IMG/VR virus record: IMGVR_UViG_2778261223_000007
Span: 12,132 to 76,131 of that record
Source: a virus
Taxonomy: Duplodnaviria > Heunggongvirae > Uroviricota > Caudoviricetes
Strand: one strand, 5' to 3'
DNA length: 64,000 nucleotides
The notes under the pieces were generated by a model. The model was not told the origin of the DNA, searched no databases, and was given only the letters and a program-made list of their open reading frames with translations. The position numbers and the translations under genes are program-made. Of the stretch, positions 5,153 through 59,765 are shown in pieces; the stretch's first letter is position 1, and each line of letters starts with the position of its first letter.

Positions 5153-8100
5153 TTATGGGGGCTGATAAAACGAACAACATAATGACACTATCCTCTGGTG
5201 TCTCACAGCCTTTGCTTGCTGATGTTCAATATTTCGAACTCTATAGTAGTTCGGCTCTTAACAGAAAACTTAAAAATATTGTTTTGCCTGGCTTTTACTG
5301 TGGATTTGAACCAGTTCCCGGCACAGGGTTGAGTGTTCGTATAACTTCTGAAAACTCAGAAGGTAAAGGGGCTGCTTCAGTAGATGTAAATAATGTTCAG
5401 ATATCCGTTCAGCAAATAGAAGATGTGACTGTCTCGGTAAAGGCTGGGGCTACCAACATTATTGTGCTGGAAGCCAATTTTGAACATGGTGTAAAAACGA
5501 CACAGGTAGATAGCGCATCTTCTGTCAGTGCTGCAAGAATTTACGCGCGTACGGACAATACTATTGGGCAGAATCAAATTGAATTATGTCGAGTTATCGT
5601 GCCTAACGGCGCAACGGCTGTGACTAAAGAAATGATTGTGCTTAAATACCGGGTTAACCGTGCTGTTGGTGTCGAATTCTCTAATGAAATAAGCAGTACA
5701 GAAGAAAGAAAAGCGGCTACACCTCTGGCTGTCAAAACTCTCCATGATTTGGTTGATACAAAAGCTCCGCTCGATAGTCCGCATCTGTCAGGTACGCCGA
5801 CTTCGCCGACACCTGAACCCGGTACAAACAACACACAGATCGCAAATGCGGCCTTTGTCTATGCTGCTATAAATGCGCTTATCAATGGTGCTCCGGGAAC
5901 GATGGACACGCTGAAAGAAATAGCGGCTGCGATCAATAACGACCCGAATTTCAGCACAACTATCAACAATGCCCTGGCTCTTAAAGCTCCTTTGGCAAGC
6001 CCGGCGTTCACAGGTACGCCGACAGCACCTACGGCCTCACAAGGCACAAATAGCACGCAGATTGCAAATACAGCCTTTGTTAAGGCAGCTATAACGGCAC
6101 TTATCAACGGTGCGCCTGGCACACTGGATACGCTGAAAGAAATAGCGGCTGCGATCAATAACGACCCGAATTTCAGCACAACTATCAACAATGCCCTGGC
6201 TCTCAAAGCGCCTTTGGCAAGCCCTGCATTAACGGGTGTCCCTACTGCGCCGACCGCCGCACAGGGCACAAATAATACGCAGATTGCTACGACCGCTTAT
6301 GTAAGAGCTGCCATATCCGCATTGGTTGGTTCATCACCAGAAGCTCTTGATACCCTGAATGAGCTTGCCGCAGCACTTGGCAATGACCCGAACTTTGCGA
6401 CAACAATGACAAATGCGCTGGCAGGCAAACAGCCTCTGGATGCAACTTTAACCGCGCTCGCTGGCCTTGCGACTGGTGCAAACAAACTGCCTTATTTCAC
6501 CGGTAAGGATACGGTAGCGCAGACTGATTTAACGTCAGTCGGTCGCGATATTCTGGCTAAAACAAGCACACTGGCCGTTATCCAATACCTTGGTTTAAGA
6601 GAACTCGGTACCAGTGGTGAAAAGATCCCCCTGTTGAGTACGGCTAACACATGGAGTGCGCGCCAGACTTTCAATGGCGGGATCACCGGGGCGCTGACAG
6701 GGAACGCCGACACCGCGACGAAATTGAAAACAGCCATAAACATTAATGGCGTCAGGTTCGATGGTTCGGCTGACATTAATATCAATACTCTGGTATCGCG
6801 TGGTCGCGTAACGGCTCTGGGGGCGAATGCACAGGGGACATCCGGGATTCAGCTGTATGAGGCATACAACAATGGCTATCCTTCCCCCTATGGCAATGTG
6901 CTTCACCTTAAAGGTGCCACCGCTGCTGGCGAAGGTGAATTATTCATTGGCTGGAGTGGCTCGAGCGGTGACCATGCGCCCGTACATATCCGTTCGCGGC
7001 GTGATACTGATTCTGCCAACTGGTCTGAATGGGCACAGGTCTATACGTCAAAAGATTCAGTTCCCGGCGTTAATGCCAAAGGGAATCAGGATACCTCTGG
7101 TAATGCGGCTACAGCGACCAAATTGCAGACGGCGTGTACTATCAACGGTGTCTCGTTTGATGGTTCTAAAAACATTGAGCTAACGGCGGAAGATTTAAAT
7201 CTTGAGCAAACCGTAGAATTAGCCGCAGGAGCATTGCAGAAAAACCAGAACGGTGCAGATATTCCGAATAAAGATAAATTCATACAAAACACAGGGGCCT
7301 GTCGTGCATTTAGCGGTCAGACTGATATCGATGGTTCACAAGGTGAATGGTCGACAGTTGCATTTATCTCGTGGCTGGAGAATAACGGAGCTTTCCGACA
7401 TCCATACTGGATGTGTAAAGGGTCATGGTCCTATGCCAGAAACAGGGTTATTACGGATACCGGTTGTGGAAATATCTGCCTTGCCGGAGCCGTGATTGAG
7501 GTTATGGGAACCCGCGGCGCAATGACCATACGCGTTACCACGCCGAGCACGTCCAGCGGTGGCGGAATCACTAACGCTCAATTCACTTATATTAATCATG
7601 GTGATGCTTACGCTCCTGGCTGGCGACGAGACTACAACACGAAAAACCAGCAGCCTGCATTTGCTTTAGGGCAAACAGGACGCAGGGTCGCAAATGATAA
7701 AGCTGTTGGCTGGAACTGGAATAGCGGCGTTTATGATGCAGATATCAGTGGCGCATCGACATTAATCCTCCACTTTAATATGAATGCGGGGAGTTGCCCT
7801 GCTGTACAGTTCCGCGTGAATTACAGAAATGGCGGTATCTTTTATCGTTCAGCGCGTGATGGTTATGGCTTTGAAGCTAACTGGTCAGAGTTTTACACCA
7901 CAACACGCAAACCCTCTGCGGGAGATGTTGGTGCATATACGCAGGCAGAATGTAACTCAAGGTTTATTACAGGTATTCGCCTTGGCGGTCTGTCATCTGT
8001 TAAGACATGGAATGGTCCTGGCTGGTCTGACAGGTCAGGTTATGTCGTTACTGGTTCAGTTAACGGAAACCGTGATGAATTAATTGATACAACTCAGGCA

Positions 8101-17815: not shown

Positions 17816-19498
17816 ATGGCAACGAAAGACAAAAACAAAGGCTTTCTGTCAGCATTGAAGAAAGCCTTCAACGGTGGTGATGTTACGCCCGCCGATCCGG
17901 TCGTTTTTACGAGCGGGCATAGTGTCGTTGCTCGTTCCGGCCTGTCTGCTTTACGTCCAGGTATACTGGGGAGCAACAGCGATGGCATGACGAGTGCAGC
18001 AGATTCAATTTCTTTATCCGCTGAACTGCCCGGCGAGCGCCTGCAAAAGTACAACATCCTGGAAACGATGGCTAAAAGCCCGACTATCTCGACGGCTTTA
18101 AACATTCACATTGCACATGCGCTTGCGCCTTCAAAAAAAACCGGACAAGCATTCATCCTTTCGCCAAAGGATGGTTCCGATGCTGAGGCAGTAAGTAGAT
18201 GTGAAGAGTTAACCGCTGATTTGGGGGCGATGATTAATGACGGACTTCCTTCATGGGCCATGATTATGGCTATCTTTGGGGTGTCTTATGTCCGACCTTA
18301 TGCTGAACAGGGCAGGGGGATAACAGGCATTGAGTCCAGTTATTACACTCTGCCACACTTCGTCCAGGAGTTTTATCGTGGTAGCCAGCTGGTAGGTTTC
18401 AGTGGTGATTACATTCTGGATACGCATAGTTTGCGCAGAGTAATAACCGAACCGTGGAATCTGGTTTCCATGAAAAATCCCTATTGGACGCCACAGCATA
18501 AAGTTATTCCGGTTAGCTACGGCACAAAAGGGTACTCACTGTTAAGTGATCAGGCTGATAAGCCGTTAATGGAGACGCAGAATTACGGAACTTCATTCCT
18601 GGAATACAGCTATGAACCTTACCTTAATTTATGTGCTTCGCTCGCCGCGCTGAAATCAACGCGAAATAATGCAGCCAAAATTGACCGCCTGATTGCTCTT
18701 ACGACGAACACACTGGACCCGGTTAATGCGGCGAACTATACGCGTGGCGTCAGCCAGGCATTGAAGCGTCATAGTGACCTGGTGGCGCAAAGGTCGATTA
18801 ATGCCAACGCTATTCCGACTGTGCTTAACCATCTGATACCTGTTATGGGAGACGGGAAGAACGGCATCACCATTGATACGCAATCCATACCCGCAGATAT
18901 CAGTGGTATCGAAGACGTTATGTTTCACCTCCGGCAGCTTGCTGCAAGCCTCGGCATTGACGCAACAATGCTTGGCTGGGCTGATCAGATGAGCGGAGGG
19001 CTTGGAGAAGGCGGCTGGCAGCAAACTGCTATCCAGGCTGCATTGCGTGCGAACTGGATCAGACAGGCCGCCCAGCGAACTATTTATCGGCTTCTGGACA
19101 TTCACCTCGCTTATAAATACGGCAAGGTTTACACCGAAACAAACCGCCCTTATGACGTGCAATTCAACTCAATGAACACTGCTATCCAGGAAGAGGAAAA
19201 CCGAGAACTGGATGCACGCGCCAACTTTGTTGCTGTCATCTCCCAAATTATGGACCAGATCCAGAACAACCCGAAACTGGCTGGTAGCGACGCGTTTATG
19301 CGTTATCTGTTCACTGAGCAGTTGCACATCGACGATGACACTCTCAACACCATGATCAAAGAGTTTAAGGCGAATGAATCAGAGCAAAACAACGAGCATG
19401 GTATGTACGAATCCGCGCCGTTGTCGTCCGGTGACGATCCGGAAAACTGGACGCCAGAACAGTTAATAAACTTTGCAAAATTTGTGATGAGCAATTAA
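17816..19498 (+). CDS. portal protein (Prt-like)
   Basis: 560-aa acidic protein. Its position relative to the protease-like gene matches the P1 prt-pro arrangement. Confidence 0.5.
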   Translation: MATKDKNKGFLSALKKAFNGGDVTPADPVVFTSGHSVVARSGLSALRPGILGSNSDGMTSAADSISLSAELPGERLQKYNILETMAKSPTISTALNIHIAHALAPSKKTGQAFILSPKDGSDAEAVSRCEELTADLGAMINDGLPSWAMIMAIFGVSYVRPYAEQGRGITGIESSYYTLPHFVQEFYRGSQLVGFSGDYILDTHSLRRVITEPWNLVSMKNPYWTPQHKVIPVSYGTKGYSLLSDQADKPLMETQNYGTSFLEYSYEPYLNLCASLAALKSTRNNAAKIDRLIALTTNTLDPVNAANYTRGVSQALKRHSDLVAQRSINANAIPTVLNHLIPVMGDGKNGITIDTQSIPADISGIEDVMFHLRQLAASLGIDATMLGWADQMSGGLGEGGWQQTAIQAALRANWIRQAAQRTIYRLLDIHLAYKYGKVYTETNRPYDVQFNSMNTAIQEEENRELDARANFVAVISQIMDQIQNNPKLAGSDAFMRYLFTEQLHIDDDTLNTMIKEFKANESEQNNEHGMYESAPLSSGDDPENWTPEQLINFAKFVMSN

Positions 19499-19511
19499 CC
19501 GGAGGGAAATA

Positions 19512-20510
19512 ATGCAATCACTGAATACTGTTACGGATCGCTTCTCCCTGGTAGAGAAAATCCGCAAACACACACCGCAGAACAACCGAAATTACGTCAT
19601 TCAGTCGGTACGAGACACATTCAACTCGCCAGAAACAAAAGAGCGTATCGCGCTGGGTGAGATGTATGGTTATTACGGTCATGGTCGCCGGGCGATGCAC
19701 TATAACAAAACGAAAAGCCTGAACTTGCCGGAAGTCTCTGTTGTGATGGTAGATGGGAAGCCTGTTGTATTGGAGAACGTGCCGTCAAACAGGACTATCG
19801 ACATTTCGATTGACGACAACGGCATTGTTACGCATACGCAGGAAATACTGGATACAGACACCGGGCGTATTGTTCAGGGCATGATTAATTCTGGTGCTGG
19901 TGGTTGGTCGTGGGCTACATCTGGTCCAGATTCATCGGTATCCCTGGTAAAGTCTTTCCACGGCTTTGATTACGTAACTGTGCCTAACTATATCAGCCTC
20001 GACAAGAAAAGCCTGATGCTTGAATCAGCAGAAGAGCGCGATGCGGCTATTCATGCAGCACTTATCGAACAAGGTTTTACCGATAACGCTGCTACGGATC
20101 TGGTTCACCACTTTTCAGCAATGAAAAATCAGCAAGCCATGCTCGAATCTGCACATCGTGAAGCCCTGGAATCAGAATTGATGCTCCTTGAAGTGGAAAA
20201 CATACAGCTTCGAGATAAGCTGCGCGCTCAAACAGCGATGATGGAAAGCCAGGGGGAAAATGCAAAGCAATGCCGCCGGATTTTGCGTGACGCTATCCAG
20301 GAAATGCCTGTTTTTATCAGCGCAGAACAGCGCCGGGCGCTTTGCCGTATGCAGTCTGAAGATGATGCCCGCATAGTGGCTGCGATGCTTGAATCTCTTG
20401 GGGCAAATGCTACTTATGGCTTACCGGTATCAGGCAAGAAAGAACCAGAGTTATCACCGAAGGAGAACAAAAACACCACCCCGTTACTCTTCGTTTCTAG
20501 AAGGGGGTGA
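19512..20510 (+). CDS. head processing protease / scaffold (Pro-like)
   Basis: 332 aa, immediately after the portal-like gene. Confidence 0.4.
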   Translation: MQSLNTVTDRFSLVEKIRKHTPQNNRNYVIQSVRDTFNSPETKERIALGEMYGYYGHGRRAMHYNKTKSLNLPEVSVVMVDGKPVVLENVPSNRTIDISIDDNGIVTHTQEILDTDTGRIVQGMINSGAGGWSWATSGPDSSVSLVKSFHGFDYVTVPNYISLDKKSLMLESAEERDAAIHAALIEQGFTDNAATDLVHHFSAMKNQQAMLESAHREALESELMLLEVENIQLRDKLRAQTAMMESQGENAKQCRRILRDAIQEMPVFISAEQRRALCRMQSEDDARIVAAMLESLGANATYGLPVSGKKEPELSPKENKNTTPLLFVSRRG

Positions 20511-20522
20511 TTGCCTTGTTAA

Positions 20523-20540
20523 GTTAAATTTCTAACATAG
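20523..20540 (-). promoter_or_regulatory. C1-type operator-like motif
   Basis: The reverse complement is CTATGTTAGAAATTTAAC, matching the recurrent RTGTTAGAAAAYTAAWTT motif. Confidence 0.4.
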
Positions 20541-20623
20541 TGTATTTATATACACTGTTGATCCTGGTGGATGGGATCGAGTAGGATCGCGGTCACTGCT
20601 CCGGTAGCGACTGCCAAAAAAGC

Positions 20624-20650
20624 AAAAGCCGCTGAGAAGCGGCTTTTTGG
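20624..20650 (+). terminator. rho-independent terminator
   Basis: AGCCGC-TGAGAA-GCGGCT stem-loop followed by TTTTT. Confidence 0.7.
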
Positions 20651-20710
20651 GTGTATAAATCCACTGCCATAGATTTATACGGTAGATAGATTTTTTCACG
20701 GAACTATCTG

Positions 20711-21673
20711 GTGAGTATTTTAAATTCAGTTTCAGTAACTTTCAACACTTCTGAGTATAAAAACAACACTGAATACCACAAAAAAATCAAAGGTCATCAG
20801 TTGAGTTTTTTTGCTCGTCATAGCGGTCTTCTTTCCCCTTCACATAGCGCCATTATTGCCGAGTTCGCCAACCTGGCAGGGTCTACCGATGAATACATGA
20901 TCCGTCGCTCATATGCTGATATGTCCGAGATTACAGGACGCAGTATTTCTACTGTGCGCCGGGCATTTGCTGAAGCGACGAAGTGCGGAATGCTTGTTAA
21001 GCAACATCAGGTAGCGAATAACAATGCCCAGGTGTGTAACGTATATCGGTTTACGACACAATTTCTCCACTTCATTCATGTAGCAATGGAGATAGGGGGT
21101 AAGCAGGGCATCAAATTTGCCAACGCCACAAAACTGGTTAAGCAGTTGATTTCAAAGGTTCGTTATTTTTTTGAAACTGGGAACCCCCTGTTCAAATTGA
21201 ACAAGTCCCCCCATGTTCAAAATGAACAGCCAATAGAAAATAAGAGTCACTCTATAGCCAAAAGAAGAGAAAGATCATACGCGGTTCAGCCAAAGGCTTC
21301 ACCAGCAGATAGTTCTCAAACGGATAACGGTGTACTGGATAAAAAACCAGTAATCAGGGAAGAACATACCAACCACTGCCTGGCGGCGGCAAAAGCGAGA
21401 GCTGCAAAGCGTCGTTCAGACGAGGGGCACGCAAAACGGCAGGCTCTGTATCGTACCGCTGAAAAGCTGGCAAAAAAATTTGCATGGATACGTAGTGCCG
21501 CTACCGCAGTGAATAAGCCTAAACAATCCAATGCCCTGGATTTCTCAATGGATTATTCTGGCTCCCAGGGGTGTGCAACCATTGGTGAAGCCTTTGACCT
21601 GATGAAACAGCGTGGCTATCGGTCTGAATTTGACCGGGAGGATTGGTCAATCCCTGCGGGATTTAGGGGATGA
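20711..21673 (+). CDS. HTH DNA-binding protein, possibly a replication initiator or regulator
   Basis: 320 aa with a GTG start. It has an HTH (MSEITGRSISTVRRAFAEATKCGMLV) and a basic K/R-rich tail. Confidence 0.45.
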   Translation: MSILNSVSVTFNTSEYKNNTEYHKKIKGHQLSFFARHSGLLSPSHSAIIAEFANLAGSTDEYMIRRSYADMSEITGRSISTVRRAFAEATKCGMLVKQHQVANNNAQVCNVYRFTTQFLHFIHVAMEIGGKQGIKFANATKLVKQLISKVRYFFETGNPLFKLNKSPHVQNEQPIENKSHSIAKRRERSYAVQPKASPADSSQTDNGVLDKKPVIREEHTNHCLAAAKARAAKRRSDEGHAKRQALYRTAEKLAKKFAWIRSAATAVNKPKQSNALDFSMDYSGSQGCATIGEAFDLMKQRGYRSEFDREDWSIPAGFRG

Positions 21674-21726
21674 CCTGTGTGTCTACAAAGCATCCCAATG
21701 ATCGGAAAATGCCCGCTCGATGATTT

Positions 21727-21744
21727 ATGTTAGAAAATTAATTT
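21727..21744 (+). promoter_or_regulatory. C1-type operator-like motif upstream of immI-like module A
   Basis: ATGTTAGAAAATTAATTT. A partial inverted half, TTTCTAAAT, follows it. Confidence 0.45.
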
Positions 21745-22086
21745 GCTGTTTCTAAATCGGAATGTATGATCTGCATCATCGACTGAAGTCATCCATTGCT
21801 GAAATTTTTAGTTGATCTTCCATGTTTTCAGGCTTATATTCATGCCGTCGTAGCAAATTCTGCGACCAGGTTTGACAGCCTGAATGTTAGTGCGGACAAC
21901 CGCAGATTTCCGATATTGCGGTATTTTTGTGTCCGTAAACCGCGTTACGCCCGAATTATGGTGGGGCGTGATGGGGAGGCTTCGGCCTGCTGGTTTCACT
22001 AACGCCAGTCTGTCAACCCTGTCACGTCCTGCCACCTGTTTGACAGCGGGTAGCAGGTTGTTAAACCTGTTAGTGAGGCCGTAACT

Positions 22087-22311
22087 ATGGTTAATGCCAA
22101 TCCTTGCTCACGTCCAGAATTCATCTGGCGTTTCCACTCCCTGCAAAAACACTGCGATCACTTCGCAATTGCCGCAACCGAAAAAGAAGCCCGTTCTCTG
22201 ATCCCTGATCAGCATGGTGTTCTTACTGGTCGTTTCTCTACTTCCCCACAACCAAACACTAATCCCTGGTATCGCAATATTACCAATCCCGGCATTGCGG
22301 AGGCACACTGA
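22087..22311 (+). CDS. Icd-like small protein (module A)
   Basis: 74 aa. Its stop overlaps the Rha-like start (TGATG). It is a paralog of 58280..58495 (EFIWRF.S.QKH...AATE.EARS motif). Confidence 0.5.
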   Translation: MVNANPCSRPEFIWRFHSLQKHCDHFAIAATEKEARSLIPDQHGVLTGRFSTSPQPNTNPWYRNITNPGIAEAH

Positions 22312-23018
22312 TGGATATCTGCATTCTTGAAAAGCCATCAATGACCAGCATTGAGATCGCGGAGCTGGTGGGAAAACGTCATGACAATGTGAAGCGTACC
22401 ATTGAAACATTAGCCGAATCCGGCGTTATTGTTCGTCCTCAAATTGAGGATGAACCAAAAATAGATGTAATGGGGCGTTCTCGATTAATTCAGGTGTTCC
22501 GATTTAGCGACGAGCAAGGCAAACGAGACAGCATCATTGTAGTCGCACAGCTTTGTCCTGAGTTTACTGCCCGGCTGGTGGACCGCTGGCGCGAACTGGA
22601 AGAACAAGTACGCCAGCCGTTGACCGAAATAGAGATGATCGCCGCAATGGCTGCAAATGCAGTTCAGCAGCAAAAGCGGCTTCATGCTGTTGAGTCAAAG
22701 GTTAGCCAGGTCGCTGAAACCGTCGAGCAAATCAAGAAGGGCAATATGCCAGATGGCTACATTGGCTACCGCCAGCTGGCGGCGAAATGTGGCCTGACCG
22801 AAGCCAAATGCCGTAACCTGGTTAACGCTTACCGGATTCCCACCGATACACATGAGTTTTTAACTCCAGAGGGGGTATTGTCGCGTCGTTCCATCGTGGC
22901 CTTATCTCCCTTCATGAATGCTTTTAACCGGATGATGTCGGAGGCTGAACACCGAGGAAAACGCTGGTATCACCCCAAAATGGGGCAATTCCAGGTGATC
23001 GGTTGGGGAGGTGAGTGA
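22311..23018 (+). CDS. Rha-family phage regulatory / antirepressor-like protein (module A)
   Basis: 235 aa. The N-terminal motif SIEIAELVGKRHDNVKRTIE is typical of the Rha family. Its C-terminal half is ~90% identical to 58495..59421. Confidence 0.7.
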   Translation: MDICILEKPSMTSIEIAELVGKRHDNVKRTIETLAESGVIVRPQIEDEPKIDVMGRSRLIQVFRFSDEQGKRDSIIVVAQLCPEFTARLVDRWRELEEQVRQPLTEIEMIAAMAANAVQQQKRLHAVESKVSQVAETVEQIKKGNMPDGYIGYRQLAAKCGLTEAKCRNLVNAYRIPTDTHEFLTPEGVLSRRSIVALSPFMNAFNRMMSEAEHRGKRWYHPKMGQFQVIGWGGE

Positions 23019-23215
23019 TGGACATCATGCAGGCGGTAAAAAAAATCAGGGAAGGACAGGCTGAAGTGTGCCGCCGTAAAGCATGGAGTGTTGGTGTATG
23101 GGCCTGGCCTGATAATTACTCTACTACCGGATGGTTTTGTATTAATGGACTCCAGATCCGGGAAGTTGATTTATCGACGGCTGATATAGTCGGTAATGAT
23201 TGGATCGTGACTTGA
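23018..23215 (+). CDS. DUF2829 (Tad2-like) small protein
   Basis: 65 aa from an ATG overlapping the Rha stop. Motifs VCRRKAWS...GVWAWP...DLSTADIVGNDWIV match the DUF2829 pattern. In module B the same domain is fused to the Rha C-terminus. Confidence 0.5.
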   Translation: MDIMQAVKKIREGQAEVCRRKAWSVGVWAWPDNYSTTGWFCINGLQIREVDLSTADIVGNDWIVT

Positions 23216-23223
23216 AGCGTGAT

Positions 23224-23248
23224 GCCCCGGCCTGGCCGGGGCTTTTTT
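23224..23248. terminator. bidirectional rho-independent terminator
   Basis: GCCCCGG-CCTGG-CCGGGGC followed by TTTTTT. It lies between convergent genes. Confidence 0.75.
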
Positions 23249-23733
23249 CATGCCTCATTAGTTGAGGTTGCTGCGTCTCCGACTGGTAACAGAGCGGTAT
23301 TGCGTGGTTCGCCAGCAGGCCAGCGATAGCCAGACACTCTTGATGTTGGGAATGCGCGAATATTAACCGCATCCCCCTGGTTCCCACCCAGGACAAGCAG
23401 ATCGCCATTGGCGCGGCGTCCGACAACGAAGCCTACGTGCCCACCGCCTACACGGGTAAATACAACGATACATCCGTATGCCGGTGTATCTAATTTCTCG
23501 CCCCAATCCAGATAGGATTTTGCCGACTCAAATCTTGTTGAGCGGATGCCTACACGTTCCAGCATTGCACCGACAAATGCTGCGCACCACGGCGTTTCAT
23601 CGTCTTTAATTCCGCCGCGCTTGATGTCGCGCCAGAACTGAACGATTTCAGGGTTGTGTTTAGCGCCTTTTATTTCAGTCAGGCCAATGTGCTTACGGGC
23701 TTCAATTAGCCAGCGAGGTTCAATGTTTGCCAT
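23248..23733 (-). CDS. TIGR02594-family putative peptidoglycan hydrolase
   Basis: 161 aa. Motifs KHNPEIVQFW...TPWCAAFV...GGHVGFVVG are typical of the phage-associated TIGR02594/CHAP-like family. Confidence 0.55.
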   Translation of the reverse strand: MANIEPRWLIEARKHIGLTEIKGAKHNPEIVQFWRDIKRGGIKDDETPWCAAFVGAMLERVGIRSTRFESAKSYLDWGEKLDTPAYGCIVVFTRVGGGHVGFVVGRRANGDLLVLGGNQGDAVNIRAFPTSRVSGYRWPAGEPRNTALLPVGDAATSTNEA

Positions 23734-35153: not shown

Positions 35154-35229
35154 GATGGTGTAGCTCAGCGGTTAGAGCGGTTGACTGTTAATCAACGGGT
35201 CGATGGTTCAAATCCATCCACCATCGCCA
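35154..35229 (+). tRNA. tRNA-Asn (GTT)
   Basis: Canonical cloverleaf with a 7-bp acceptor GATGGTG/CACCATC, a TTCAAAT T-loop, an encoded CCA, and the anticodon loop CTGTTAA. Confidence 0.9.
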
Positions 35230-35231
35230 AT

Positions 35232-35307
35232 GCCGGTTTAGCTCAGTTGGTAGAGCGCCTGCCTTGTAAGCAGGATGTCAGCGGTTCGAGTCCGTTAATC
35301 GGCACCA
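35232..35307 (+). tRNA. tRNA-Thr (TGT)
   Basis: Acceptor GCCGGTT/AATCGGC, T-loop TTCGAGT, encoded CCA, and anticodon loop CTTGTAA. It starts 2 nt after tRNA-Asn. Confidence 0.9.
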
Positions 35308-35315
35308 GCACAACA

Positions 35316-35389
35316 GGTAAGGGTATTTTGCGACGTCGGAGATCGCCGAGCTTGGCAGAGGGTTCGAATCCCTACGAAGTACCCTTACC
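35316..35389 (+). other. tRNA-like structured element: a 10-bp perfect stem enclosing a T-arm-like GAGGGTTCGAATCCCTA. The cloverleaf is not canonical.
   Basis: GGTAAGGGTA ... TACCCTTACC with an internal TTCGAAT T-loop consensus. There is no clean D or anticodon arm. Confidence 0.3.
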
Positions 35390-35535
35390 GTTGTGATGAA
35401 GTGCAGCTCTTTGAAGCAACCAGAAGATAAGCATCTGGCTTCACAACATAAACCGCAGGAACGACCAATAAACGGTAGTCCGTACGGAGAACACCCCGTT
35501 GAGGAAGAGGCCTGGCCGGAACCGTAACCGGCACT

Positions 35536-35627
35536 ACAACGTTGAGAACACTGGCGTAACGGGGTCATATCCCAATCTACGAATAAATGTTGCGTTGCAG
35601 CGTGACAACCAGTGTTCTCAACGTTGT
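35536..35627. repeat. 19-bp perfect inverted repeat separated by 54 nt
   Basis: ACAACGTTGAGAACACTGG at 35536-35554 and CCAGTGTTCTCAACGTTGT at 35609-35627. Confidence 0.6.
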
Positions 35628-35772
35628 GGTGGATTCGCAGGCTGATGCGATAGCTTTCTTGGATGTTAGGGAAATGCGGCCGCAAATCTTCCCTTTCGCG
35701 AGCGGTGATCGTCCGTAGTCCTAATTGGCTGCACCGTATGCCGGAGATTCAGTACCGGCCACCACAACGGCC

Positions 35773-35859
35773 GGAGAGTAGGGCGCATGGTGCTCAAGCG
35801 GTCTTGAAAACCGTCCCATTGCGCAAGCGATGATGGTTCGATTCCATTACTCTCCGCCA
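35773..35859 (+). tRNA. degenerate type-II tRNA-like gene, tRNA-Ser(TGA)-like and possibly a pseudo-tRNA
   Basis: Acceptor GGAGAGT/ACTCTCC with CCA; anticodon stem-loop GCGGT-CTTGAAA-ACCGT; long variable arm; T-arm GATGG-TTCGATT-CCATT. The D-arm is irregular. Confidence 0.35.
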
Positions 35860-36126
35860 GCGCAACGTTAAGAGTATTTGGCTAATTAAGCGAATGCCGG
35901 AAGCAGAACCGGATCACCAAATGCGTACAGGCGTCATCGCCGCCCAGCCAGCCAAGTGCTCTTACCATTGCGGTGAATGCGGCTAAGCGCACGCGGAACA
36001 GTTAAAACAATCCTCCTTAGTGGTTAAGTCAAAAATCCCGGCGTTAATTGTTAACTGGTTAACGTCACCTGGAGGCACCAGGCACCGCAACCTAATAAAT
36101 ACGTCATGTTTATTGAGGGATAACCA

Positions 36127-36561
36127 ATGTTCGGTAAATTTTTCGGTAAGAAAGTCGCTTCAGCAAAAGTAGAGCTGAAAAGGGTTGAGAATCGCGATCT
36201 GATGGAGGCCATTATCGGTGGCTGTTTGTTGGTGTCTGCCGCAGATGGTGAAATCGAAAAGGAAGAAACAGCGAAACTTGATCAGCTTGTCCGCTCTAAT
36301 CCTCGCTTAAGTCATTTTGGCAACGAAATTACCGCAACAATCACCCGTTTTACTGAGCAACTGGAAGCTGGTTTCCGTGTTGGTCGCATGAATATCCTTC
36401 GCGAAATTGAAGATATCAAAAATGATCCAAAAGAAGCGGAAGAAGTATTCGTTAACATGCTGACGATTGCAGAAGCGGACGGTGAAATCGAGCCAGCAGA
36501 ACACAAAGTACTGGAAGAAGTAGGCCGTCGTTTGGGCCTTCGTGTGGAAGATTATCTGTAA
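36127..36561 (+). CDS. tciA: TerB-like protein (TciA-like, tellurite/phage-exclusion family)
   Basis: 144 aa with duplicated acidic motifs LLVSAADGEIEKEE and LTIAEADGEIEPAEHKVLEEVGRRLGL typical of TerB. Confidence 0.7.
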   Translation: MFGKFFGKKVASAKVELKRVENRDLMEAIIGGCLLVSAADGEIEKEETAKLDQLVRSNPRLSHFGNEITATITRFTEQLEAGFRVGRMNILREIEDIKNDPKEAEEVFVNMLTIAEADGEIEPAEHKVLEEVGRRLGLRVEDYL

Positions 36562-36725
36562 TGATTGGCAAGGCGCGTATTGCGTGCGCCATTGGTTTTC
36601 TCGTTTTGTCCGTGCTGGTGGATTTCACCAGCAAAGTGATGTCGGTGTTGGCTGATGGGGCACTGGTTTCAGTAGCTGTGGTATTGCTATTGCCGATTAT
36701 TAAAGCTGCGTTCAGGAACTCATGA
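36561..36725 (+). CDS. small membrane peptide (TciB position)
   Basis: 54-aa ORF not in the track (MIGKARIACAIGFLVLSVLVDF...). It has two hydrophobic segments and is coupled to the tciA stop (TAATG). Confidence 0.45.
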   Translation: MIGKARIACAIGFLVLSVLVDFTSKVMSVLADGALVSVAVVLLLPIIKAAFRNS

Positions 36726-36835
36726 TGGATTTTTGGACGTATATTGATAAGAACCCTGGATGGTCTTTGCTATTTCTGCTTGTGATCGTATACGGAGTAG
36801 AACAAGTAGCGAAGAATCTCAGGCGTCGAAAATAA
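36722..36835 (+). CDS. small membrane peptide (TciC position)
   Basis: 37-aa ORF (MMDFWTYIDKNPGWSLLFLLVIVYGVEQVAKNLRRRK) overlapping the previous stop. Confidence 0.4.
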   Translation: MMDFWTYIDKNPGWSLLFLLVIVYGVEQVAKNLRRRK

Positions 36836-36844
36836 AAACTAATT

Positions 36845-36920
36845 GGCCCCTTAGCTCAGTGGTTAGAGCTGGCGACTCATAATCGCACGGTCACCGGTTC
36901 AAGTCCGGTAGGGGCCACCA
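36845..36920 (+). tRNA. tRNA with CAT anticodon (Met or lysidine-modified Ile2 type)
   Basis: Perfect 7-bp acceptor GGCCCCT/AGGGGCC, D-arm GCTC-AGTGGTTA-GAGC, anticodon loop CTCATAA, T-loop TTCAAGT, encoded CCA. Confidence 0.85.
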
Positions 36921-56890: not shown

Positions 56891-57469
56891 ATGCAGAAAC
56901 AGAGCTATTGGGAGAAACAGAGACAAAAAGCCATGCAAAAATTGGCTGACCCAGCCTGGCGAGAGGAACAAAGGGCAAAGTGCCTTCAACAAGCTCAACG
57001 CCAGCAGCAGCGAGCGAGAGAAAAAGCCGCATCGCCTGAATATCGGCAAAAGAAAATTGAAAAAGCAAAGCAATATGAACAGCGGAGAAAAGATAAAGCT
57101 GTATCCGCTCCGTCCAAAAAAACACGCACGTCACGCGGCCTGAAAGGCAGATCACTCACAGCCGATGAACGCCGGATACAGACCGCTATCGGTGCTCTCC
57201 CCTGCATTGCCTGCCATATTCACGGGCAACATAGCCCAGTGGTATCCCTGCACCATATCTTCGGGAGAACGGCAGAGAACGCGCATAAATATGTCCTCCC
57301 TTTGTGTAAATGGCACCACCAGTACGCAGCGCCAGCCGAGGTCCGAGAACAATATCCCTGGCTGGTCCCTGTTCATGCTGACGGAAAAATAGGCGGAAAA
57401 GCAGATTTCATGCGGCACAATGCCGATGAAATGACGTTGTATCAGATGGCGATTGAATTGATAAATTAG
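56891..57469 (+). CDS. ref: Ref (recombination enhancement function, HNH endonuclease)
   Basis: 192 aa. The C-terminal half matches P1 Ref (ALPCIAC...SLHHI.GRTA...LPLC.WHHQ.AAPAEVRE.YPWLVPVHADG). Confidence 0.85.
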   Translation: MQKQSYWEKQRQKAMQKLADPAWREEQRAKCLQQAQRQQQRAREKAASPEYRQKKIEKAKQYEQRRKDKAVSAPSKKTRTSRGLKGRSLTADERRIQTAIGALPCIACHIHGQHSPVVSLHHIFGRTAENAHKYVLPLCKWHHQYAAPAEVREQYPWLVPVHADGKIGGKADFMRHNADEMTLYQMAIELIN

Positions 57470-57480
57470 TTTTCTAACAT
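57463..57480 (-). promoter_or_regulatory. C1-type operator-like motif
   Basis: The reverse complement is ATGTTAGAAAACTAATTT. Confidence 0.4.
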
Positions 57481-57800
57481 TTTAAGTTGAATTGTAAATT
57501 TCTCCGATGTACATTCACTACCGATTGGCACACCGGTCAACTTTTTGAGACAAACTGTTTAGTTTTTCGTATTATTGCCGCCGCTATACCTATGGCGGTG
57601 CAATATAGGTGGCTGAAAAGCCCCCGTTGACTCACGGTGTTCCAGCCTTTATTGCGCCGCCACCAGACCGTGGAACAGTCGATGGCGGCTCCGAAAGCAA
57701 GGAGTCACTACACTATGAACAGCTACTGTCTTTTCCCATCACTCGTTGTCCGCCACTCACGCGATAATCTGCATTCTTTACTCGCGCTGGGGGTGTCAAA

Positions 57801-57968
57801 ATGACCGTTCGTTACCTCAACTTTCAAATCCAGAACATCACTGGCGGTTGCTATGACTGGTTTGTCACTCTCGGAAAAGAAGTGATCACCGGGAAGCTGG
57901 ATGAAGTGAAAACTAAAGCAATGGCCTACGCCTGCAAGCAAGCCCGGAAGAAATCCGCCAAAGCATAA
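57801..57968 (+). CDS. 55-aa ORF in the leader of immI-like module B (questionable)
   Basis: MTVRYLNFQIQNITGGCYDWFVTLGKEVITGKLDEVKTKAMAYACKQARKKSAKA. Confidence 0.25.
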   Translation: MTVRYLNFQIQNITGGCYDWFVTLGKEVITGKLDEVKTKAMAYACKQARKKSAKA

Positions 57969-58073
57969 AATACTGACTGTTGCGCCCTGGCATTATCGTG
58001 GGGTATATTTCTACGGCACCTTAGAAAAACGGGTGCCGGGATTGGAACCCCGGATAATGTCAAAGGCGACACA

Positions 58074-58094
58074 GACGCCGAAAGCGTCTTTTTT
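58074..58094 (+). terminator. rho-independent terminator
   Basis: GACGC-CGAAA-GCGTC followed by TTTTTT. Confidence 0.7.
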
Positions 58095-58109
58095 GTGTCA
58101 TGCCATCGC

Positions 58110-58270
58110 ACAGCCATACGTAGCGTTTAGCTCAGAGATCAATGGTAGTGCTGGCTGGGCTGCCGAAAGGCAGGCCGGTTCCCTTTGACGCCGGTAGTTC
58201 CAACCCAGTCAGTGCTACCGCCATTGAGATTGGAACCTCACGCGGTAGCTCCTTAACTTAGTCAAAGGAG
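58110..58270 (+). ncRNA. candidate c4-like regulatory RNA / structured leader upstream of the icd-like gene
   Basis: Contains the tRNA-like TAGCTCAGAGATCAATGGTAG and the hairpins CTGCC-GAAAG-GCAG and GGTTCC-CTTTGACGCCGGTAGTTCCAACC. It ends at the icd-like RBS. Confidence 0.25.
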
Positions 58271-58279
58271 GCTGCCAAT

Positions 58280-58495
58280 ATGGCTACTATCCCTACCCCA
58301 ACTCATTCTGAATTTATCTGGCGTTTCTATTCCTGCCAAAAACACCTGTATATCTGCGTCATGGCTGCTACCGAAGCAGAGGCGCGCTCATACCTTCCCG
58401 AAGAACCCTGCATTTTTGCTGCTCGCTTCACTCTTGATGCGATGGAGATCCTCAATTACTGGAATCTGCCGATGAACTGCGTGGAGGCGCACTGA
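58280..58495 (+). CDS. Icd-like small protein (module B)
   Basis: 71 aa, a paralog of 22087..22311. Its stop overlaps the Rha start. Confidence 0.5.
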   Translation: MATIPTPTHSEFIWRFYSCQKHLYICVMAATEAEARSYLPEEPCIFAARFTLDAMEILNYWNLPMNCVEAH

Positions 58496-59421
58496 TGAAT
58501 CTGTCCATCTCTCAAAAAGCGACAATGACCAGCATTGAGATCGCGGAACTGGTAGGTAAGCGCCCTGATAACGTTAAACGCACCATTGAACACCTGGCGG
58601 AACGGGGCGTAATATCTTTTCCTCAAATTGAGGAAAAGCCCACCGCAGGCCGCCCGGCGAGCTATTACGTCTTTGAAGGCGAACAAGGCAAGCGTGACAG
58701 TATCATTGTCGTCGCACAGCTTTCTCCCGAATTTACCGCCCGGCTGGTGGACCGCTGGCGCGAACTGGAGAATGCCCGGGTACAGTTAAAATCAAAAGCC
58801 GAAATCCTGGCTGAAATGGCGCAAATGCATCTTGAGCATGAACGCCGGATCAACGCCGTTAATGCCCAGGTAGCCGAAGTATCGGCACAAGTGTCCAAAG
58901 TCGCTGAAACCGTCGAGCAAATCAAGAAAGGCAATATTCCGGAAGGCTACATTGGCTACCGCCAGCTGGCGGCGAAATGTGGCCTGACTGAAGCCAAATG
59001 CCGAAACCTGGTTAACGCTTACCGGATTCCCACCGATACGCATGAGTTTTTAACTCCCGATGGTTTGCTTGCGCAACGCTCCATTGTGGCCCTGGCCCCC
59101 TTCCGGAAAGCCTTTAAGCAGGTGATGTCGGAGGCAGAACCACGCAATAAACGCTGGTATCATCCAAAGATGGGGATGTTTCAGGCAATCCACCATCCTG
59201 TGCCTGAAAGTCCAAAGGCAAACCTGTCGTTGCATACCGCCAGAGAGAGGATTAAAACAGGCTATGCAATCGTATGCCGTCGAGCATCCTGGCCTGAAGG
59301 TGTATGGGTGTGGCCCGAAGGTGGATCACGAAAGCACTGGCGCACTATCCGGGATGGGAAAATCCATGCGATTGATTTAGCTCCAGAGGATGTTGTTGCT
59401 ACGGACTGGATTGTTAGTTAA
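58495..59421 (+). CDS. Rha-family antirepressor-like protein fused to a C-terminal DUF2829-like domain (module B)
   Basis: 308 aa. The first ~240 aa are collinear with module A Rha. The C-terminal 60 aa (IVCRRASWPEGVWVWP...DLAPEDVVATDWIVS) are collinear with the separate 23018..23215 ORF. Confidence 0.7.
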   Translation: MNLSISQKATMTSIEIAELVGKRPDNVKRTIEHLAERGVISFPQIEEKPTAGRPASYYVFEGEQGKRDSIIVVAQLSPEFTARLVDRWRELENARVQLKSKAEILAEMAQMHLEHERRINAVNAQVAEVSAQVSKVAETVEQIKKGNIPEGYIGYRQLAAKCGLTEAKCRNLVNAYRIPTDTHEFLTPDGLLAQRSIVALAPFRKAFKQVMSEAEPRNKRWYHPKMGMFQAIHHPVPESPKANLSLHTARERIKTGYAIVCRRASWPEGVWVWPEGGSRKHWRTIRDGKIHAIDLAPEDVVATDWIVS

Positions 59422-59429
59422 TTACTGTT

Positions 59430-59451
59430 GCCCCGGCCTGTCCGGGGCTTT
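59430..59451 (+). terminator. terminator hairpin (same sequence family as 23224..23248)
   Basis: GCCCCGG-CCTGT-CCGGGGC followed by TTTAACT. Confidence 0.5.
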
Positions 59452-59480
59452 AACTACTAAATAACCGGATTCTCCGCACG

Positions 59481-59765
59481 ATGAAGAAAATAGATTTCAC
59501 TTACTCTGCTGCCACAATCCAGCGACGTTTCAGTCTCATAAGGGAAGTGGAACTATCAAAAAACTGCTATCAAATTCTACTGGATGAAGAGTTTTCACTG
59601 ATGGTTATAGCAGAAAAATTGGCTATGCCGAATGACCGGCACAAGGTCATAGCCAGCCTGGATCTGGTGACAAACAGATACTGGGAATACGAGGAACTAC
59701 TTGAAGTTGGCTTGATACGCGAGATGATAGAACAGGCTGTTCCCCTCCACTTACAGCAACCATAA
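59481..59765 (+). CDS. hypothetical protein
   Basis: 94 aa. Confidence 0.4.
   Translation: MKKIDFTYSAATIQRRFSLIREVELSKNCYQILLDEEFSLMVIAEKLAMPNDRHKVIASLDLVTNRYWEYEELLEVGLIREMIEQAVPLHLQQP

Follow-up and report, generated by a model that had tools for sequence, protein, structure and literature searches.

Two predicted C4-controlled immI-type switches with different recognition codes in a D6-like plasmid prophage

The virus sequence analyzed here (IMG/VR record IMGVR_UViG_2778261223_000007, positions 12,132-76,131; 64,000 nucleotides, hereafter the window, whose own coordinates are used throughout) encodes two paralogous icd-rha(ant) modules, module A (22087-23215) and module B (58280-59421), in the same orientation and 36.19 kb apart. 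In both of them the leader contains a gene for a C4-family antisense RNA flanked by two pairs of short recognition elements (a1/b1 upstream and a2/b2 downstream), b2 falls on the ribosome-binding site of an Icd open reading frame (ORF) that follows these sites, and the Icd ORF overlaps the next gene, as in the immI operon of phages P1 and P7. The elements of the two modules spell different codes, each complementary to the C4 RNA of its own module, and they vary jointly among related loci. We consider it likely that the two modules are immI-type switches that work independently and are orthogonal to each other, both of them C4-controlled as proposed here.

Region A (21500-23500) was 94.7% and region B (57400-59600) 97.7% identical to the Escherichia coli phage D6. 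Region B was also 100% identical to pYU39_89 (CP011430), a plasmid prophage of Salmonella, and to three sister plasmids of Salmonella, and the best match to region A in PLSDB was an E. coli plasmid with 99.2% identity. Full-length copies of region A and region B were found in 108 and 79 PLSDB plasmids, respectively. On the basis of these sequence identities, the window is classified as a D6-like plasmid prophage.

Control regions and pairing

The RNA part of module A comprised the following features:

21812-21840, + strand: promoter-like site TTGATC-17-TATATT, found by a consensus scan and aligned with the annotated -10 of the P1 promoter P1c4 (P51b)
21834-21892, + strand: leader A with a1 TTGACAG (21872-21878) and b1 GTTAGTG (21886-21892), both identical to the annotated P1 sites
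21960-22036, + strand: C4-A antisense RNA gene with b' CACTAAC (21997-22003) and a' CTGTCAA (22010-22016)
22040-22078, + strand: RNA target of module A with a2 (22040-22046), spacer hairpin CAGGTTGTTAAACCTG (22054-22069) and b2 GTTAGTGA (22069-22076), the latter overlapping the icd Shine-Dalgarno sequence GAGG

Rfam detected the c4-a1b1 family (RF03163) at 21834-21886 with 54.4 bits (gathering threshold 46.7), b1 lying just downstream of the match, and the C4 family (RF01695) at 21954-22039 with 68.8 bits (gathering threshold 45). C4-A was identical to the C4 RNA of phage P1 at 77 of 77 positions, and a1, b1, a2, and b2 all equalled the annotated P1 sequences. Homology to P1 upstream of the module started at the -10 region, and neither Op51 nor P51a of P1 was conserved. 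No isrK match (Rfam) and no terminator were found in leader A. The hairpin that the initial annotation of this DNA had pointed out near the ribosome-binding site is present (22054-22069), and it turned out to be the conserved a2-b2 spacer that is also found in P1 and P7. One candidate operator motif upstream of module A, ATTGCTGAAATTTTTAG, occurred a single time and, being unique, was dropped.

The control region of module B had another kind of leader:

58004-58009, + strand: probable -10 TATATT, 7 nucleotides upstream of the 5' end of the IsrK model (58016), placed from the sequence and the Rfam position
58016-58095, + strand: IsrK-type leader RNA with a1 TTGGAAC (58042-58048), b1 GTCAAAGG (58059-58066) and an intrinsic terminator (58073-58095)
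58144-58222, + strand: C4-B antisense RNA gene with b' CCTTTGAC (58182-58189) and a' GTTCCAA (58197-58203), its ends set by analogy with P1 C4
58230-58271, + strand: RNA target of module B, located by pattern search, with a2 (58230-58236) and b2 (58261-58268), the latter overlapping the icd-B Shine-Dalgarno sequence AAGGAGG

Here Rfam reported isrK (RF01394) at 58016-58094 with 62.7 bits (gathering threshold 50) and C4 (RF01695) at 58138-58225 with 77.1 bits (gathering threshold 45). Module B has the organization of an IsrK-type locus, in which an isrK RNA that ends in a Rho-independent terminator precedes a small ORF and then an antirepressor-like gene. The statement that the two modules have different control regions was borne out, the leaders being of the c4-a1b1 type in A and of the IsrK type in B. 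They had also been called unrelated, which proved too strong; the leaders have diverged (~61% identity in a global alignment), yet each includes a full a1b1 - C4 - a2b2 unit, with C4 recognized by Rfam in both. Of the elements described upstream of module B, the terminator was recovered at 58073-58095 and the decamer TAGCTCAGAG at 58128-58137. The tRNA-like nature ascribed to the decamer was rejected, as it is spacer just 5' of C4-B and neither ARAGORN nor Rfam saw a tRNA at 58.1 kb; both programs confined the tRNAs of the window to 35.1-36.9 kb. The C4 precursor of P1 and P7 is a substrate of RNase P, and if this applies here, the tRNA-like impression would go back, distantly, to the C4 stem and not to TAGCTCAGAG.

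Both C4 RNAs folded into the same three-way architecture, with -42.4 kcal/mol (z -5.6) for C4-A and -46.5 kcal/mol (z -6.4) for C4-B. This architecture comprises a long closing stem and two hairpins, of which the second has b' in its loop, and it leaves a' single-stranded. The b' element was fully in the loop in C4-A and partly paired in the minimum-energy fold of C4-B, and a' was single-stranded in both. Each a..b signature was present exactly three times in the 64 kb. Two of these occurrences are on the + strand, the third is the reverse complement within C4, and the chance expectation is at most ~0.01. The codes read TTGACAG/GTTAGTG in module A (the P1 code) and TTGGAAC/GTCAAAGG in module B. 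They differ at more positions than the codes of P1 and P7, a difference described as the basis of the heteroimmunity of these two phages (PMC12197685). The predicted duplexes were as follows:

b' of A: -19.3 kcal/mol with its cognate b2 of A, -6.4 with the non-cognate b2 of B
b' of B: -14.2 kcal/mol with its cognate b2 of B, -5.6 with the non-cognate b2 of A
a' of A: -9.2 kcal/mol with its cognate a2 of A, -2.4 with the non-cognate a2 of B
a' of B: -9.7 kcal/mol with its cognate a2 of B, -2.3 with the non-cognate a2 of A

Cognate pairs had a predicted stability advantage of 7-13 kcal/mol over cross pairs, and C4-A and C4-B are predicted from these pairings not to cross-regulate, as they should if the switches are orthogonal.

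Variation of the recognition codes

Related loci were retrieved through Icd (80 loci from IMG/VR and 10 from genomes), and their leader codes were typed from alignments. At least six classes of B-type leaders could be distinguished, across which a1, a', and a2 varied jointly, and likewise b1, b', and b2. Their a element was TTGGAAC, TTGAGAC, TTGGTCT, or a TTGGCCT that pairs with TTGGTCT via G-U wobble, and their b element was GTCAAAGG, GCAAAAGG or GTCTAAGG. Covariation was assessed on 25 distinct B leaders that were ~94% identical outside the sites. In this set, a'/b' and a2/b2 formed standard pairs in 100% of the cells, a value equalled by none of 500 shuffles, and pairing fell to 29-56% in slid controls. 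Six pairs changed on both sides, in 29 cells. Between a1/b1 and a'/b' the pairing reached 99.7%. One leader (IMGVR_UViG_2778261639_000014, 1250-1506) carried TTGAGAC as a1 together with an a' and an a2 of the TTGGAAC type, and is therefore regarded as recombinant.

The A-type leaders comprised at least five types, whose sites co-varied in the same manner. Of the six a x b combinations that are possible, five were represented in a set of 21 D6-like A leaders, and the P1 code of the window was the commonest (10 of 21). All four P1/P7 a/b combinations were found in P1-like genomes. D6 itself had ACTTACG as b at all three places of module A and the code TTGAGAC/GCAAAAGG in module B; its codes differ from those of the window in both modules. 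Ten D6-like genomes typed for both modules displayed six different AxB combinations. The A and B codes assort freely, and the recognition elements recombine on a nearly invariant background.

Effector genes, proposed mechanism and alternatives

Downstream of the RNA targets, the two modules encode the following features:

22087-22311, + strand: icd-like gene A, 74 amino acids; NCBIfam NF033153 (phage_ICD_like) 40.3 bits (cutoff 25); 61% identity to P1 Icd
22311-23018, + strand: Rha/Roi-family gene A ('ant'), 235 amino acids; Pfam PF09669 37.2 bits (cutoff 29.9); PHROG 63 'anti-repressor Ant'
23015-23215, + strand: separate tail ORF of module A, 65-66 amino acids, overlapping the ant stop (TGATG); PHROG 7385; 40% identity to AntB residues 244-308
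23224-23248, + strand: intrinsic terminator of module A, GCCCCGGCCTGGCCGGGGC followed by T6, from a terminator scan
58280-58495, + strand: icd-like gene B, 71 amino acids; NF033153 49.5 bits (cutoff 25); 63% identity to P1 Icd and 67% to the second icd of RCS47
58495-59421, + strand: Rha/Roi-family gene B ('ant'), 308 amino acids with the tail domain fused; PF09669 30.7 bits (cutoff 29.9); PHROG 63 matched to the end of the profile
59430-59451, + strand: terminal hairpin of module B, GCCCCGGCCTGTCCGGGGC and then TTT only, seen in the sequence and not called by the terminator scan

The icd stop and the ant start overlap by one nucleotide (TGATG) in both modules, and so do the ant stop of A and its tail ORF. 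This agrees with the initial description of two paralogous immI-like modules in which the stop of a 71-74 amino acid ORF overlaps the start of a Rha-family gene. The tail, said to be separate in A and fused in B, is indeed so arranged in the ORF listing, since the tail ORF of A is 40% identical to the C-terminal residues of AntB. At the protein level, the copies shared 66% (Ant) and 45% (Icd) identity. Both Rha proteins passed the PF09669 (Phage_pRha) cutoff narrowly and scored below that of the stricter NCBIfam TIGR02681 (18.1 and 12.8 bits against 45.95). Both modules end in a common hairpin, GCCCCGGCC-TGN-CCGGGGC, at 23224-23242 in A and 59430-59448 in B; the claim that they share the same terminator holds for this hairpin but not for the T tract, which is T6 in A and only TTT in B. 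A CHAP-domain peptidoglycan hydrolase gene (23248-23733, - strand) converges on the terminator of module A, because of which the GC-rich hairpin at 23224-23242 may terminate transcription in both directions.

In the mechanism that we propose, transcription from the promoter would produce a leader with the decoy elements a1/b1, a C4 RNA of ~77-79 nucleotides, and then a2/b2, with b2 on the icd Shine-Dalgarno sequence. By analogy with P1 and P7, mature C4 would be excised from this leader, and its a' and b' elements would pair with a2 and b2. Translation of icd would then be blocked, and the Rha ('Ant') protein silenced through coupling and polarity; Rho-dependent polarity contributes in P1. This lytic or derepressing effector would stay off in the lysogen, and equally on any incoming genome whose a/b code is the same. 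In module B, the terminator would release a short RNA bearing a1b1 that could titrate C4-B, and the presence of an IsrK-type terminator means that this RNA should accumulate. There are precedents for both arrangements. In P1 and P7, C4 blocks the ribosome-binding site of icd, to which ant is coupled (PMC12197685), and in Gifsy-1, IsrK activates the translation of an mRNA made by read-through and, in this way, the antirepressor (PMC4825925). Of this scheme, the RNA genes, the layout of the sites, their complementarity and covariation, the gene overlaps and the family memberships are shown by the sequences; the processing of C4, its repressive action, the function of the short RNA and antagonism of the prophage repressor by the Rha proteins are inferred.

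The likeness to immI of P1 and P7 (c4 - icd - ant1/ant2) extends over the whole order of elements, i.e., promoter, a1 b1, C4, a2 b2 on the icd ribosome-binding site, icd, and an overlapping gene. In module A it includes the C4 RNA, all four sites and the spacer hairpin, and in both systems short a/b elements set specificity and differ among relatives, as between P1 and P7. Unlike P1 and P7, the window has two modules, effectors of the Rha/Roi family without similarity to Ant1/Ant2, and an upstream region without P51a or the C1-controlled operator Op51 at the promoter. The module is located after repL in the window and before kilA-repL in P1, and the gene overlap is one nucleotide (TGATG) instead of four (ATGA). 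With the isrK - orf45 - anrP locus of Gifsy-1 (PMC4825925), module B shares an isrK-family RNA that ends in an intrinsic terminator, and read-through would likewise give a long mRNA in which a small ORF is coupled to a predicted antirepressor gene. A stable processed RNA, STnc1160, lies downstream of IsrK in Gifsy-1 (PMC4825925), and C4-B occupies the corresponding position in the window. However, orf45 is placed over the region that corresponds to the C4 RNA in the window, which has a separate Icd ORF after C4, and Gifsy-1 is a chromosomal lambdoid prophage of Salmonella, not a plasmid prophage. The second module of RCS47, JL22, and pTZ20_1P, located between pacB and c1, has an isrK-type leader, C4, and icd, with 87-89% DNA identity to the leader of module B, and it also coexists with a classical P1-type c4-icd. 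It differs in its genomic position, in its a element (TTGAGAC) and in its effector, which is P1 Ant1-like (54% identical to Ant1) and not of the Rha type. D6 and pYU39_89 have the same gene order as the window, with both icd-ant pairs annotated; D6 differs in the codes of both modules and in the N-terminal region of AntA (87% amino acid identity).

Several observations weigh against two orthogonal immI-type switches. The consensus of the P1 C1 operator had no match in the 64 kb with up to three mismatches, no repeated operator-like motif was found upstream, the consensus promoter scan made no call for the promoter of module B, and the T tract at the terminal hairpin of module B is weak. A D6-specific operator may exist. 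As for the effectors, BLASTP searches (E<=1e-3) of AntA and AntB against P1 Ant1, P1 KilA, and the second-module Ant of RCS47 gave no hit. The N-terminal half of both proteins shared 49-58% identity with the Roi proteins of HK97, VT2-Sakai, and P27, and a 60% identical homologue of AntB was found directly after cro, at the cII position, in the Stx2d phage LC567830 (1501-2562 of the retrieved stretch). Finally, in the experimentally supported model for Gifsy-1 the short IsrK RNA is a trans-activator of its own mRNA, unlike simple C4 repression (PMC4825925). For these reasons, i.e., no homology to P1 Ant or KilA, a Roi/Rha-like N-terminal half and a homologue after cro, 'antirepressor' is used here as an annotation suggested by gene position and by PHROG 63 and 1726, which AntA and AntB match and which are labelled anti-repressor. 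Since the effector is unlike Ant1, KilA, and the RCS47 Ant and akin to Roi, the control cassette is, as far as homology indicates, conserved and its cargo swapped. In LC567830, an isrK and C4 unit (2374-2562 of the retrieved stretch) follows the AntB homologue, inside a coding sequence annotated as 'hypothetical protein'.

The missing resemblance to P1 Ant1/KilA and to the RCS47 Ant, the N-terminal winged helix-turn-helix Phage_pRha domain shared with the three Roi proteins, and the homologue immediately after cro would all suit another reading, in which RNA control operates as proposed and the Rha/Roi proteins are DNA-binding early or lytic regulators, or carriers of a Tad2-like tail that would bind a small molecule. 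The modules would then gate two regulators instead of inactivating a C1-like repressor. The tail does show a weak, full-length resemblance to Tad2-like PF11195 (formerly DUF2829; Thoeris anti-defence 2), with 15.1 bits (E 0.034) for 23015-23215 and 11.9 bits (E 0.35) for AntB residues 233-308 (59191-59418), both matches spanning the whole profile. The initial annotation had called it a DUF2829 tail; the ORF and the domain are there, but the label falls below the cutoff of 25 in both copies. Searches for homologues of the tail returned close relatives only, none of them labelled DUF2829 or Tad2, there was no sequence hit in the PDB, and an AlphaFold2 model from a 13-sequence alignment (mean predicted local distance difference test score 55, below 50 in the tail) was too poor for fold comparison. 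The regulator reading is also opposed by the location of both genes exactly at the ant position of the immI operon, by the anti-repressor annotation of the PHROG 63 and 1726 members, and, by analogy, by AnrP of Gifsy-1, which lies downstream of isrK-orf45 and induces the prophage (PMC4825925). We regard it as possible, and doubt it on balance.

That one of the modules is a decaying duplicate or a passive insertion without a role is very unlikely. A single module is enough for P1 and P7, the second one looks like an insertion between pacB and c1 in P1-type backbones (PMC6906374), the tail has split off in A, and the final terminator of B has a poor T tract. Yet the RNA, the six sites, the ORFs, and their overlaps are intact in both modules, the 108 and 79 plasmids mentioned above keep regions A and B in full, and AntB homologues occur on hundreds of contigs. 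Moreover, covariation at three sites in both modules requires selection on pairing.

With two orthogonal C4-controlled switches as the preferred reading, a broader proposal can be made, tentatively. D6-like and many P1-like phage-plasmids might carry a two-lock RNA immunity barcode, i.e., two orthogonal C4 locks, one with a P1-type and the other with an IsrK-type leader, whose a and b elements are exchanged as independent cassettes. If so, a resident prophage would silence the effectors of an incoming relative only if the two genomes agree in both codes. The IsrK-like RNA that terminates early in lock B would be a built-in sponge that sets the threshold, and immI would be a combinatorial self/non-self system driving heteroimmunity among co-circulating phage-plasmids. 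The element in the window would then be predicted to be homoimmune with P1 for immI-A. D6/P1-like phage-plasmids commonly carry resistance genes in E. coli and Salmonella, and knowing which of them exclude or induce each other would help to explain their co-existence and spread.

Prior record and sequence exchange between the copies

The initial annotation considered two such modules in one genome unusual. This is contradicted by their presence in D6, pYU39_89 (PMC6799933), RCS47, JL22, and pTZ20_1P (PMC6906374); likewise, each of the three species-representative genomes that gave hits had one c4-a1b1-type and one isrK-type module. Both icd-ant pairs are recorded in the annotation of D6 (MF356679 / NC_050154) as orf19/18 and orf83/82, the second antisense/icd region of pYU39_89 was mentioned in print in 2019 (PMC6799933), and for RCS47 and pTZ20_1P, Venturini et al. 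reported an insertion of 'two short hypothetical orfs and ... ant' (PMC6906374). That the module is duplicated had already been recorded in print and in GenBank annotation, and our finding of it is largely a rediscovery. What is added here is that the second module amounts to a complete C4 switch that has a code of its own and a leader of the IsrK type; this joins the literature on P1 immI with that on Gifsy-1 IsrK. We also add the letter-for-letter identity of the first switch with that of P1, from which RNA-level cross-immunity with P1 is predicted, and the coordinated three-site variation of freely recombining recognition elements in both switches. In the RefSeq record of D6, no C4, c4-a1b1, or isrK feature is annotated in the stretches 18004-23004 and 72343-77559, where Rfam detects all of them. 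A hypothetical coding sequence on the opposite strand of D6, orf84 (2027-2326 of the stretch 72343-77559), overlaps the isrK and C4 positions.

The two copies had been described as direct repeats ~90% identical over ~450 bp. The direct-repeat similarity is real and its extent smaller, with 86% identity over 278 bp (22710-22985 versus 58900-59175), 75% over ~310 bp at the 5' end of the Rha gene, and small islands elsewhere; 95% was attained only in a 160-bp core. The longest exact matches were 44, 35, 32, 29, and 25 bp. The core is the following patch within ant:

22710-22869 (A) and 58900-59059 (B), + strand: near-identical patch of 160 bp, 95% nucleotide identity, falling to 66% just downstream

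Across ant codons 141-185, nucleotide identity was 91-98%, and 38 of the 43 identical residues used identical codons. By comparison, codons 16-30 had 14 of 15 residues identical and only 4 of 14 codons. Within the patch, paralogs were as similar as orthologs (95.0% vs 95.6%), and immediately downstream the values were 66% and 100%. In addition, the A copies of the window and of D6 each share different B states in the patch. Since paralogs match like orthologs and the two A copies are mosaics of B states, the patch appears to be the product of short-tract gene conversion, which the pattern suggests was repeated.

Identity in the patch might instead be kept by an embedded nucleic-acid element, e.g., the perfect 14-nucleotide palindrome CCGCCAGCTGGCGG acting as a protein-binding site. 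This palindrome lies in the patch and is confined, within the window, to the two ant copies, and the synonymous sites of the patch are almost frozen. However, RNA folding gave a weak signal (z -1.0, -2.5, and -0.1) and no convincing structure, the best-conserved peptide of the protein lies in the patch, and the mosaic of paralog states that the copies of the window and of D6 share is what short-tract conversion would leave. We therefore hold a maintained element to be improbable, and gene conversion remains our preferred explanation for the patch.

The initial annotation also envisaged that the repeats would allow RecA-dependent deletion of everything between them. The copies do form direct repeats, with one orientation and a distance of 36.19 kb; sequence runs of 44, 35, 32, and 29 bp match exactly, and the patch is evidence of exchange between the copies. 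Yet queries with synthetic A-left/B-right and B-left/A-right junctions, which matched in part 452-577 records, found neither junction at >=80% coverage in 72,556 plasmids. The longest identity is 44 bp, 95% identity is limited to 160 bp, and what was seen in place of deletion is apparent gene conversion. In addition, 74.5-kb variants keep both copies, and a deletion would take packaging and other phage genes with it, according to the list given with that idea (darB, tRNAs, pac, phd-doc, of which darB and the tRNAs were confirmed). It is extremely unlikely that the copies matter mainly as substrates for such a deletion.

A second mosaic segment was observed in the N-terminal winged helix-turn-helix of AntA (22311-22500, against 2312-2500 of the D6 stretch 18004-23004). 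Here the window diverged sharply from D6, with 87% amino acid identity overall and the differences clustered at residues 22-70, and this segment was closer to AntB in the window than in D6. Two other features of the element were noted outside the modules, namely a cluster of four tRNA genes between them (35154-36920: Asn-GTT, Thr-TGT, Ser-TGA, and Met-CAT) and a pair of tandem direct repeats of 222 nucleotides each, 80% identical, at 5761-6204.

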